Assembly (NCBI RefSeq): GCF_054482595.1
Contig: NZ_CM137008.1
Reading direction: 5' to 3' (one strand)
DNA: 64,000 nucleotides
The notes beneath the pieces are model-generated. The model was given only the letters and a program-made list of their open reading frames with translations. It was not told the origin of the DNA and did no database searches. The position numbers and the translations under genes are program-made. Every line of letters starts with the position of its first letter. The first letter of the stretch is position 1. Shown in pieces: positions 3,344 to 61,236 of this stretch.

Positions 3344-4387
3344 ATGCGCTATCGCATTTTCCTTCTCTTTTTTTTCGCTTTGTTGCCGACGTCTTTGGTG
3401 TGGGCGGCACCAGCGCAACGGGCGTTTTCCGACTGGCAGGTCACCTGTAATAACCAAAACTTCTGCGTGGCGCGTAATACGGGCGATCATAATGGACTGG
3501 TGATGACCCTGAGCCGCAGCGCCGGGGCGCATACCGATGCCGTTTTACGTATTGAGCGCGGCGGGTTGAAGTCGCCGGATGCGTCTGAAGGGGAGATAGC
3601 GCCACGGCTGCTGTTAGATGGTGAGCCGTTGGCGTTAAGTGGTGACAAGTGGCGGATTTCACCATGGTTATTAGTAACCGATGATACGGCAACCATCACC
3701 GAGTTTTTGCAGATGATTCAGGAAGGGAAGGCGATCACCTTACGCGACGGCAATCAGACCATTTCTCTGAGTGGCTTAAAAGCGGCGTTGTTGTTTATTG
3801 ATGCTCAGCAAAAGCGCGTTGGCAGTGAAACCGCGTGGATCAAGAAAGGGGACGAACCGCCGCTCAGCGTACCGCCCGCGCCTGCGCTGAAAGAGGTCGT
3901 GGTGGTTAACCCAACGCCGACGCCACTCTCACTCGAAGAACGCAACGATTTGCTGGATTATGGAAACTGGCGGATGAATGGTCTGCGCTGCTCGCTTGAT
4001 CCATTGCGTCGTGAGGTGAATGTCACTGCGCTGACTGATGATAAAGCGCTGATGATGATTAGCTGTGAGGCAGGGGCCTATAACACCATTGATTTGGCAT
4101 GGATTGTGTCGCGTAAAAAGCCACTAGCCTCGCGTCCGGTTCGGTTGCGTTTGCCGTTCAACAACGGTCAGGAGACGAATGAACTGGAACTGATGAACGC
4201 AACATTTGATGAGAAATCGCGTGAGCTGGTGACCTTAGCGAAAGGGCGCGGATTAAGCGATTGTGGCATTCAGGCGCGCTGGCGCTTTGACGGTCAGCGT
4301 TTTCGCCTGGTGCGTTACGCCGCAGAACCGACCTGCGATAACTGGCATGGGCCAGATGCCTGGCCCACGTTGTGGATCACCCGTTAA
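3344..4387 (+). CDS. ypfG: Uncharacterised periplasmic protein YpfG (DUF1176), signal peptide
   Basis: 347-aa ORF with N-terminal hydrophobic signal sequence (FLLFFFALLPTSLVWAAP); conserved synteny between nudK and tktB. Confidence 0.85.
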   Translation: MRYRIFLLFFFALLPTSLVWAAPAQRAFSDWQVTCNNQNFCVARNTGDHNGLVMTLSRSAGAHTDAVLRIERGGLKSPDASEGEIAPRLLLDGEPLALSGDKWRISPWLLVTDDTATITEFLQMIQEGKAITLRDGNQTISLSGLKAALLFIDAQQKRVGSETAWIKKGDEPPLSVPPAPALKEVVVVNPTPTPLSLEERNDLLDYGNWRMNGLRCSLDPLRREVNVTALTDDKALMMISCEAGAYNTIDLAWIVSRKKPLASRPVRLRLPFNNGQETNELELMNATFDEKSRELVTLAKGRGLSDCGIQARWRFDGQRFRLVRYAAEPTCDNWHGPDAWPTLWITR

Positions 4388-4404
4388 ACAAAATGGCGGG
4401 ACAT

Positions 4405-4474
4405 GTAGGCCGGATAAGACGCGTCAGCGTCGCATCCGGCAATCAGCATCCGGCAATCAGCATCCGGCAATCAC
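4405..4474. repeat. REP (repetitive extragenic palindrome) followed by three tandem copies of a 14-bp unit (catccggcaatcag) at 4433-4474
   Basis: gtaggccggataagacgcgtcagcgtcgcatccggc is a REP consensus; tandem units directly visible; located between convergent ypfG and tktB. Confidence 0.6.
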
Positions 4475-4476
4475 CA

Positions 4477-6480
4477 TCAGGCACCTTTCACTCCCAGCAC
4501 CTTATGCGCTTTTGCCACAATATTCTCGGCGGTAAAGCCAAAGAACGGGAACAGCTTATCCGCCGGAGCAGATTCCCCGTAACCCGTCATCCCGACAATT
4601 GCCCCTTTCAGACCAACATACTTGTACCAGTAATCGGCAATACCTGCTTCCACCGCCACGCGAGCCGCAACGTTAGAAGGCAACACCGACTCCCGATATT
4701 CCTCATCCTGGGCGTCGAAAATATCGGTCGAGGGCAGGGAAACTACGCGAACATTGCGACCTTCTCCCGCTAATTTCTCTGCCGCTTGCAGGGTGATTTC
4801 CATCTCTGAACCGGTGGCAATCAAAATAATATCTGGCTTACCGCCGCTGTCTTTCAGCACATAACCGCCACGAGCAATCTCTTTAACCTGATCCGGCGTA
4901 CGTTCCACCTGGGCCAGATTCTGCCTGGAGAGAATCAGTGCCGTCGGTCCGTTGTGGCGCTCAACCGCCAGCTTCCAGCCCACCGCCGCTTCCACCTGAT
5001 CGCACGGTCGCCAGGTGCTGAAATTTGGCGTTAAGCGCAGACTGGCCAGTTGCTCAACAGCCTGGTGCGTCGGACCATCTTCGCCCAGACCAATTGAGTC
5101 GTGGGTATAAACCATAATCTGCCGCGCTTTCATCAGTGCCGCCATCCGCGCGGCGTTACGGGCGTATTCAACAAACATCAGGAACGTTGCGGTATAAGGC
5201 ACAAAGCCGCCGTGGTGCGCGATGCCGTTGGCGATAGCGGTCATGCCAAATTCACGCACCCCGTAGTGAATGTAGTTGCCCGCCGGATCTTCCTTCAGCG
5301 AAACAGAACCTTTCCAGATGGTCAGGTTGCTGGGAGCCAGATCCGCCGAACCGCCGAGCAACTCAGGCAGCATTGGCCCGTAAGCGTTAAGCGTATTTTG
5401 CGAAGCCTTACGGGTAGCGATTTTCGCCGGATTCGCCTGCAACTCATTGATATATTTCTGAGTCGTTTTCTCCCAGTCCTTCGGTAAACCACCGCTCATC
5501 CGACGGGTAAACTCTTCTGCCAGTTGCGGATGAGCCTTTTTATAGGCGGCAAACTTCTCATTCCAGCTCTGCTGCGCTTTTTCGCCTTTTTCGCGGGCAT
5601 CCCAGGCGTGATAAATCTCTTTAGGGATTTCAAATGGCGGATGGTGCCAGCCCAGTTTTTGCCGTGCCAGCGCCACTTCTTCTTCCCCCAGTGGTGCGCC
5701 GTGCGCCTCTTCCTTACCTGCTTTATTCGGCGATCCAAAGCCAATCACCGTACGACAGATAATCAGCGACGGCTTATCTTTCACGCTTTGCGCTTCAAGG
5801 ATCGCTTCCTTCACCGCCTGCGGATCGTGACCGTCGATTTCATGGATCACATGCCAGTGATAGGCTTCAAAACGTTTTGCCGTATCGTCGGTAAACCAGC
5901 CTTCGGTTTCTCCATCAATCGAAATACCGTTGTGATCGTAAAAACCAATCAGCTTGCCCAGTCCCAGCGTGCCCGCCAGCGAACAGACTTCGTGGGAAAT
6001 ACCTTCCATCAGGCAGCCGTCGCCCATAAACACATAGGTGAAGTGATCGACAATTTCATGATCCGGCTGGTTAAACTGCGCCGCCAGTGTACGCTCTGCT
6101 ATCGCCAGTCCGACGGCGTTCGCCAAACCTTGTCCAAGTGGACCGGTGGTGGTTTCAACACCGGGCGTATAGCCGATTTCCGGGTGGCCAGGGGTTTTCG
6201 AATGCAACTGACGAAAGTTCTTCAGCTCTTCCAGCGGCAGGTCGTAACCGGTCAGATGTAGCAAACTGTAGAGCAGCATCGACGCGTGACCGTTGGAAAG
6301 AATAAAGCGGTCGCGATCATACCAGGTTGGGTCGGTAGGGTTATGTTTAAGAAAATCGTTCCACAGCACTTCGGCAATATCAGCCATGCCCATCGGCGCG
6401 CCGGGATGACCAGAATTGGCTTTTTGTACCGCATCCATACTGAGTGCGCGAATCGCATTGGCAAGGTCTTTTCGGGACAT
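4477..6480 (-). CDS. tktB: Transketolase 2
   Basis: 667 aa from ATG at 6480 ([27 protein letters not shown]...); TPP-binding motifs; the track ORF includes a 21-codon in-frame upstream extension. Confidence 0.95.
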
Positions 6481-39234: not shown

Positions 39235-39270
39235 GTAGGCCTGATAAGACGCGCAAGCGTCGCATCAGGC
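39235..39270. repeat. REP element between cysA and cysM
   Basis: gtaggcctgataagacgcgcaagcgtcgcatcaggc. Confidence 0.55.
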
Positions 39271-42124: not shown

Positions 42125-43852
42125 TTAGCAGATTGTTTTTTCTTCAATGAACTTGTTAACCAGCGTCATTAACTCGTCCGTTGTCGGTTGAGCAAGAGCC
42201 TGCTCTGCTAACACCTTCGCATCTTCGAAGTTCGTGTTACGGATAATCTTCTTAATGCGCGGGATAGAAATGGCGCTCATAGAGAATTCGTCCAGACCCA
42301 TCCCCAGCAACAGAAGTGTAGCACGTTCATCGCCAGCAAGCTCACCACACATGCCAGTCCATTTGCCTTCAGCATGAGAAGCATCAATAACTTGCTTGAT
42401 CAAGTTCAGCACGGACGGTGACATTGGCTGGTAAAGGTGTGAAATCATATCATTACCACGGTCAACTGCCAGAGTGTACTGCGTTAAATCATTGGTGCCG
42501 ATACTAAAGAAATCAACTTCTTTGGCTAAATGACGTGCAATTGTTGCGGCAGCCGGTGTTTCCACCATTACGCCGATTTCAATTGACTCGTCAAACGCTT
42601 TACCTTCGTCGCGCAGTTCCTGTTTGTAGATTTCGATCTCTTTGCGCAGTGCACGCACTTCTTCAACAGAGATGATCATCGGGAACATAATGCGCAATTT
42701 ACCGAAAGCCGAGGCACGCAGGATAGCGCGGAGCTGATCGCGCAGGATCTCTTTACGATCCATCGCGATACGGATAGCGCGCCAGCCGAGGAACGGGTTC
42801 TCTTCTTTCGGGAAGTTCATGTATGGCAGCTCTTTGTCGCCGCCGATGTCCATGGTACGAACGATAACCGCCTGCGAGCCACACGCTTCAGCCACTGCTT
42901 TGTAAGCAGCAAACTGTTCTTCTTCAGTGGGCAGCGCGTCGCGGTCCATGAACAGGAACTCAGTACGATACAGACCAACGCCTTCAGCGCCGTTACGCTC
43001 TGCACCTTCAACGTCACGAACCGTACCAATGTTAGCGCATACTTCTACCTGGTGACCGTCCAGCGTAATAGCTGGCAGATCTTTCAGTTTAGCAAGCTCT
43101 GCTTTTTCAGAAGCCACTTGCTCCTGAACAGCGCGCATTTTATCAATAACTTCGTTGGTTGGATTGACGTAAACCTGATTATTTACGGCATCCAGAATCA
43201 GATAGTCGTCATTTTTCACCTGAGAGGTGACGCTACCGGTACCCACGATAGCAGGCAGTTCCAGAGAACGCGCCATGATAGAGGTGTGGGAAGTACGGCC
43301 ACCCGCGTCGGTGATGAAACCCAGCACCTTCTTCAGGTTCAGCTGTGCGGTTTCGGACGGCGTCAGGTCAGCGGCAACCAGAATGACTTCATCCTGAATG
43401 GCGCTCAGGTCGATAATCTTCAGGCCCAGGATGTTGCGCAGCAGGCGCTTACCGATATCACGTACGTCAGCCGCACGTTCTTTCAGGTATTCATCATCCA
43501 GCTCTTCCAGGGCAGAAGCCTGACCTTCGATAACTTCATGAGCAGCTGCGTCAGCTGTCATGTGTTTATCTTTAATCAGGGCTATGATTTCCTGCTCCAG
43601 CTCCTCATCTTCGAGCAGCATAATATGCCCTTCAAAGATGGCTTCTTTTTCTTCACCGAACGTTTCACCAGCTTTCGTTTTGATCGTTTCCAGCTGGGCT
43701 GATGCCTTGGCACGACCGCTCAGAAAACGTTCAACTTCCTGATCAACCTGGTCGGCAGAAATTTTTTTCCGGTCAATGACAATTTCGTCTTCTTTCAGAA
43801 GCAGAGCTTTACCGAAAGCGATACCCGGGGATGCTAAAATGCCTGAAATCAT
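42125..43852 (-). CDS. ptsI: PTS Enzyme I (phosphoenolpyruvate-protein phosphotransferase)
   Basis: 575 aa, [19 protein letters not shown]... Confidence 0.97.

Positions 43853-61124: not shown

Positions 61125-61236
<112 letters not shown>

Follow-up and report, generated by a model that had tools for sequence, protein, structure and literature searches.

The ypfG-tktB spacer and its REP element

In the window that we analysed, i.e., the whole stretch of 64,000 nucleotides, the genes ypfG and tktB converge on a spacer of 89 nt that holds one REP element. The ypfG gene, which encodes a DUF1176 protein, runs on the + strand from 3344 to 4387, with 21 nt between its TAA stop (4385-4387) and the REP stem that follows. 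The tktB gene, which encodes transketolase 2 and is annotated as tkt or tktB with a length of 2004 nt, occupies 4477..6480 on the - strand and closes with a TGA at 4479..4477, after the C-terminal translation ...KVLGVKGA. Both gene identities and the convergent orientation had been given in an initial annotation of this DNA, and they agree with the list of open reading frames and with the RefSeq annotation of identical or near-identical loci. A small hairpin, CCCGUUA-AACAAAA-UGGCGGG, is predicted just upstream of the REP at 4380-4402 (+), where it includes the ypfG stop; it is present in both the MFE and the centroid folds of the + strand.

The complete REP occupies 4405..4440 on the - strand, where it matches the Stern-type (classical) REP consensus GCCKGATGCGRCGYNNNNRCGYCTTATCMGGCCTAC with 0 mismatches, as compared to 0.00 matches expected by chance (100 shuffles). 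Read along the + strand, it consists of a GTAG foot (4405-4408), a 5' arm (4409-4422), a loop (4423-4426) and a 3' arm (4427-4440). The two arms, of 14 nt each, are 86% complementary around the 4-nt loop and form an imperfect palindrome with an internal mismatch, which is detected as an inverted repeat and predicted to fold as a hairpin. A role has been described for the GTAG tetranucleotide at the foot of REP hairpins (PMC3333891). The element thus combines the consensus, the mismatched stem-loop, the GTAG foot and the extragenic, dispersed and multi-copy occurrence that mark REPs, also known as palindromic units (PUs), and it shares with them the extragenic location at gene 3' ends; with the 126-nt allele of the window as probe, the median number of matching places in a genome was 3 under megablast settings. 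There are 3 matches to the REP consensus in the window in total. The other two, at 39235-39270 (0 mismatches) and 61199-61234 (2 mismatches), also lie on the - strand and are of the CCTG/CAGG type, and TRF found no tandem array beside either of them.

When positions 4000-5000 were searched against Rfam at E<=1, the only match was to naRNA4 (RF02564), a nucleoid-associated RNA derived from REP325, at 39.2 bits against a gathering threshold of 59.5. Membership in this family was rejected, the score being well below the threshold; the resemblance comes about through the REP hairpins that the two have in common.

A tandem array built from one REP arm

On its tktB side the REP continues into a tandem array that TRF places at 4432-4483, with a period of 14, 3.7 copies and a score of 90. 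This is the strongest tandem repeat of the whole window, of which 30 dinucleotide shuffles gave scores no higher than 59. The 14-nt unit consists of the tktB-side REP arm and a 4-nt spacer. Three exact copies of this unit, GCATCCGGCAATCA, follow one another head-to-tail on the + strand at 4432-4445, 4446-4459 and 4460-4473; the first is the REP's own 3' arm, and copies 2 and 3 are without a pairing partner. A degenerate fourth copy of the REP-arm unit, CCATCAGGCA, at 4474..4483 (+), takes the array to the end reported by TRF and carries the last tktB codons together with the stop (GGT GCC TGA on the - strand). It is supported by a repeat search that found a third 24-nt register at 92% identity. 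Directly after the third GCATCCGGCAATCA the + strand reads CCATCAGGCACC, and the whole of 4404-4487 can be written on that strand as TGTAGGCCGGATAAGACGC-GTCA-GCGTC-GCATCCGGCAATCA-GCATCCGGCAATCA-GCATCCGGCAATCA-CCATCAGGCACCTT.

The initial annotation had recognised a REP with a tandemly reiterated 3' arm, a description with which the + strand sequence and TRF agree, and had ascribed one mismatch to the third copy. The mismatch is a matter of register: in the register catccggcaatcag (4433-4446, 4447-4460, 4461-4474) the last letter of the third copy is indeed c where the other two have g, and in the register GCATCCGGCAATCA all three copies are exact. The fourth copy that reaches the tktB stop was absent from that annotation, as were a second variable arm and the replacement of the REP in ~15% of genomes.

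The arrangement differs from that of typical REP clusters, the BIMEs, in which whole REPs alternate in orientation: here one arm is directly reiterated, and some other strains have the second arm doubled as well. A BIME comprises at least two REPs in alternating orientation with a linker, whereas the spacer in the window has one complete REP, and its extra arms are in direct orientation.

Allele variation across E. coli

The comparison of copy number across E. coli genomes that had been proposed at the outset was carried out on a set of 5,426 complete genomes, with the spacer read directly in ~20 fetched representatives. Two features vary at the locus, namely the 14-mer, which is present in 0-6 copies, and the 19-nt 5' arm TGTAGGCCGGATAAGACGC, which is present in 1 or 2. 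We denote the alleles as (a,b), where a counts the 19-nt arms and b the 14-mers; the values of b read in the fetched loci were 0, 1, 2, 3, 5 and 6. The clone to which the window belongs is (1,3). Both K-12 MG1655 and O157:H7 are (2,2), and in MG1655 the 19-nt 5' arm, GTAG included, is duplicated in tandem and accompanied by only two 14-mers; the RefSeq record of K-12 lists no repeat feature in the ypfG-tktB spacer. Further alleles that were read are (1,2), (2,3), (1,3) with SNPs in the units, (2,5) and (2,6). A probe of 7 copies was at least 80% covered in 435 records, and no allele of more than 6 copies was found at the top of its ranking.

We estimated allele frequencies from two systematic samples by rank (39 + 59 rows, i.e., 98) that were read by match length, so that allele identity is checked by sequence in the representatives only and is otherwise inferred from the length of the match. 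In these samples the modal allele is (2,2), at ~55%, followed by (1,2) at ~24% and by a replacement allele that lacks the REP at ~15%. Alleles with at least three 14-mers come to ~5% in these samples; their share is given as a range of roughly 5-8%, because the joining of overlapping BLAST pieces leaves the coverage and identity bands ambiguous. Over 401 nt, at least 99% identity to the K-12 allele was found in 2,810 of 5,428 records.

These results show the locus to be a low-diversity VNTR in the E. coli population, with repeats that stand head-to-tail and differ in copy number among strains. It shares with bacterial VNTR/MLVA loci the short head-to-tail repeats and the unit-step differences in copy number between strains, and differs from them in its low diversity and its stability within a clone. 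The suggestion that the array could serve as a strain-typing marker holds insofar as copy number marks lineages; the resolution of strains is low, however, with two 14-mers in ~80% of the sampled genomes and three in 13 of the 13 members of the window's clone, and the locus does not discriminate closely related strains as a useful MLVA marker would. One match, in strain AH19B041 (NZ_CP196316.1, 4787874-4788250), ends 5 nt short, and the neighbour of ypfG in that genome is annotated as a "transketolase-like TK C-terminal-containing protein"; tktB may be truncated or disrupted there.

The three-copy allele and its clone

An allele identical to the 126-nt allele of the window is present in 13 independent complete E. 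coli genomes that differ in laboratory, host and country of origin, among them XH990, O157:H16 Santai, THO-010, TUM18780, APEC37 and W619. The carriers are exactly the 13 genomes that are ~100% identical to positions 1-25000 of the window, the next best genome being 98.7% identical. Because the carriers and the genomes that are ~100% identical over 25 kb are the same 13, the allele, which is rare, is fixed in a single clone. It is not hypervariable or hypermutable on the time scale of that clone.

Short tandem repeats are prone to mis-assembly, and the initial annotation had raised the concern that the three copies might be an artefact of the source assembly. That concern is refuted by the occurrence of the same 126-nt allele in 13 complete genomes, all of them on the 25-kb haplotype of the window itself. 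Many genomes have other copy numbers in common, too, and an array of 42 nt fits within any sequencing read; an assembly error is, in our estimation, extremely improbable.

Two members of the clone show peculiarities elsewhere in their genomes. In GF66.1 (NZ_CP172194.1), positions 1-25000 of the window matched in two pieces that span 25,776 nt instead of 25,000; this genome has an insertion of ~776 nt somewhere in the 25 kb, for which an IS1-like element would fit in size, as a guess. The 100-kb plasmid NZ_CP104632.1 of strain AHM21C2872I has a 38-nt REP-like match of 94.7% at 42181-42218. REPs are uncommon on plasmids.

Replacement of the REP, rare alleles and outgroups

Strains of the CFT073 type have no REP between ypfG and tktB. 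Their spacer, orthologous to window 4388-4459, has in its place a G-rich imperfect palindrome of 78 nt (...GTCCCCTCGCCCCTCTGGGGAGAGGGTTAGGGTGAGGGG...) and, after it, one GCATCCGGCGATCA. This G-rich element, unrelated to REP, belongs in turn to a repeat that is dispersed over intergenic regions, with a median of 16 places in a genome and a maximum of 29; it seems to resemble the "box C" repeats.

Two rare alleles bear on the part of the array that overlaps tktB. In ST2747 the G-rich element is followed by zero 14-mers, and the sequence GCATC|AGGCACC is the product expected of a deletion between the 14-mer and the copy that overlaps the stop, the deletion being exact between GCATC and the CCATC of the neighbouring copies. 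In CMZE046 there is an extra, hybrid duplicated unit, CCATCAGGCGATCA. Both alleles make it clear that the tktB-terminal copy is involved in the dynamics of the repeat, and in both the TktB protein remains unchanged.

A scan of genome contigs for a degenerate pattern of the TktB C-terminus recovered two outgroups, both Escherichia. In E. whittamii the orthologous spacer, at 5535-5660 of the fetched locus, contains a full BIME that consists of an inverted REP, a 15-nt linker and a CCTG/CAGG-type REP. After the arm GCATCAGGCA of this REP come AACCG and then GCATCAGGCACC, the end of tktB, and 15 nt further on GCATCAGGCA recurs, identical to the REP arm, as the stretch with the tktB stop. Given this identity between the arm and the stop region, a direct arm repeat with a stop-bearing copy exists in E. 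whittamii too. The second outgroup, Escherichia sp. E1V33, has the G-rich element at the orthologous site. The site is evidently an old spot for the landing or turnover of small repeats.

How the array may have arisen

We consider it probable that a half-arm of the single REP at the locus has been amplified into a VNTR by slippage or unequal exchange, with a copy number that is most likely neutral. The amplified unit is the tktB-side arm with its 4-nt spacer, 14 nt in all; the array extends up to the tktB stop and, degenerately, into it, and its length would change by replication slippage or by unequal exchange between direct repeats. Several patterns among the alleles point in this direction. 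In the expanded alleles (L012 and L014), it is the interior A-type unit that has been multiplied, and the G-type unit is kept next to tktB. Alleles of 5 and 6 copies that differ by a one-unit step occur on the same haplotype, and six different alleles lie between flanks that do not differ from those of K-12 over 190 nt (SNPs in the flanks are too few for a haplotype tree). The breakpoints of the ST2747 deletion and of the CMZE046 duplication lie inside the repeats. Because copy numbers are stepwise, expansion is interior, hybrid units occur and breakpoints fall within repeats, slippage or unequal exchange is favoured; the origin by slippage that had been proposed in the initial annotation fits the single-unit steps, the kept terminal G-variant and the hybrid units, as read from allele patterns only.

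The arm copies could alternatively be the work of the TnpA-REP (RAYT) tyrosine transposase, made by C|T cleavage and strand transfer rather than by slippage. In vitro, TnpA-REP cleaves C|T beside REPs, and TGCC|TGAT in iREPs, and it can join strands to give tandem BIMEs (PMC3333891). Such activities lend this alternative some appeal, as do the junctions at the locus: those between 14-mers read GC|TG on the - strand, the junction of the duplicated 19-nt arm in K-12 also reads GC|TG, on the + strand, and the stop region of tktB, GGTGCC|TGATGG, matches the iREP-I cleavage site. The enzyme, however, needs a complete GTAG-REP on the strand that it cleaves (PMC3333891). On the + strand of the window allele the GTAG and the stem mismatch are present and no CT occurs within the REP or the array; a CT is found at the 14-mer junctions only on the - strand, which has no GTAG-oriented REP but only the inverted form, and there is no second REP. 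It also counts against the transposase that the repeated units are half-arms and not REP or BIME units, that the CCGG-type arm copies are without a CC|T site, and that the breakpoints of the hybrid unit and the deletion fall inside repeats, in registers without C|T, as is expected of slippage. On these grounds an origin through TnpA-REP strikes us as very unlikely, and amplification of a half-arm by slippage or unequal exchange is the reading that we prefer.

Folding of the transcripts and possible function

The REP hairpin is predicted on both strands, in the folds of both transcripts; in partition-function calculations on model alleles its core pairs with a probability of ~0.99 and uses the loop-proximal 14-mer at any copy number. 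In (1,b) alleles, including that of the window, the extra 14-mers are predicted to stay unpaired, and a misaligned hairpin between the 5' arm and a distal 14-mer, considered for these alleles, was rejected at a probability of ~0. By simple geometry, the hairpin lies 8, 22 and 36 nt downstream of the tktB stop with 1, 2 and 3 copies, and the only effect that the models predict for the window allele is this shift, which puts the hairpin at 36 nt with three copies as compared to 22 nt with two.

A different structure is predicted for (2,>=2) alleles, such as that of K-12, in which the second 5' arm would pair with a second 14-mer to make a two-tier hairpin. The minimum free energy is -54.9 kcal/mol for the K-12-type (2,2) allele as compared to -41.3 kcal/mol for that of the window, the two + strand constructs being of unequal length (145 vs 140 nt), and the base of the K-12-type two-tier hairpin is predicted to lie near the tktB stop.

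No intrinsic terminator was detected on either strand between 4200 and 4700, neither strand has a T-run behind the REP, and no promoter was found in the same scan. The initial annotation had proposed that the array may alter the terminator structure of the convergent ypfG and tktB transcripts. For the window allele the results lend this no support, with a core hairpin that forms at ~0.99 regardless of copy number and no intrinsic terminator to be altered. REPs have been associated with Rho-dependent termination and with the binding of Pol I, and BIMEs with the binding of gyrase and IHF (PMC2817692). By analogy, the REP hairpin at this locus probably acts as a 3'-end barrier or as a Rho-assisting structure for both convergent mRNAs.

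Whether copy number matters over and above the REP itself can be weighed on the same results. It is conceivable that it tunes tktB expression, through the distance between hairpin and stop or through the two-tier hairpin, and the range of distances (8, 22 or 36 nt with 1, 2 or 3 copies) is in keeping with this, as are the lower free energy of the K-12-type (2,2) structure (-54.9 vs -41.3 kcal/mol) and the placement of its base near the tktB stop. Liang, Rudd and Deutscher reportedly found in 2015 that REPs lower translation when they lie no more than ~15 nt from a stop codon, and an effect of stop proximity of this kind would lend further support. Against it stand the stability of copy number within the clone, the ~15% of genomes that do without a REP and the TktB protein sequence, which is unaffected. 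Furthermore, all REP-bearing alleles that were seen have at least two copies, and the inner hairpin consequently never comes within 15 nt of the stop. We regard a function of copy number as unlikely, and we infer that the difference in copy number is most likely selectively neutral.

At the more speculative end, and very improbable in our view, the arm copies could make up an evolvable "spacer and clamp", in which the 14-mers set the distance between stop and hairpin and the doubling of both arms, seen in K-12, creates a two-tier hairpin near the stop, or the amplification of half-REPs could be an undescribed product of the transposase. If the "spacer and clamp" were real, lineages would differ heritably in the 3'-end processing or the translation termination of tktB mRNA, and perhaps of ypfG mRNA.

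Relation to known REP polymorphism and significance

Polymorphism in the length of REPs and BIMEs between E. coli strains is well documented (PMC2817692, PMC3333891). The ypfG-tktB locus has in common with the BIME polymorphism described by Nunvar et al. 2010 (PMC2817692) and Ton-Hoang et al. 2012 (PMC3333891) the extensive strain-to-strain differences in how long a REP region is and what it contains, the presence or absence of elements and their replacement at a fixed site. It differs in the variable unit, which is here a half-REP of 14 nt or 19 nt and not a REP-linker-REP module. In the literature that we searched, no description of the ypfG-tktB locus or of the 14-nt unit and no use of either in MLVA was found, and the one match to the sequence of the unit was to another REP, entered as a false CRISPR repeat. 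To judge from that literature, the VNTR of half-arms between ypfG and tktB has apparently gone undescribed.

The importance of the finding is limited. It documents one more route by which REPs diversify, namely tandem duplication of a half-arm as compared to that of whole REPs, and a site at which different families of small repeats replace one another, and it provides a lineage-level length marker beside tktB. If copy number were shown to change the stability of tktB mRNA or the termination of its translation, the alleles would constitute a natural allelic series for the effect of stop distance on REPs.
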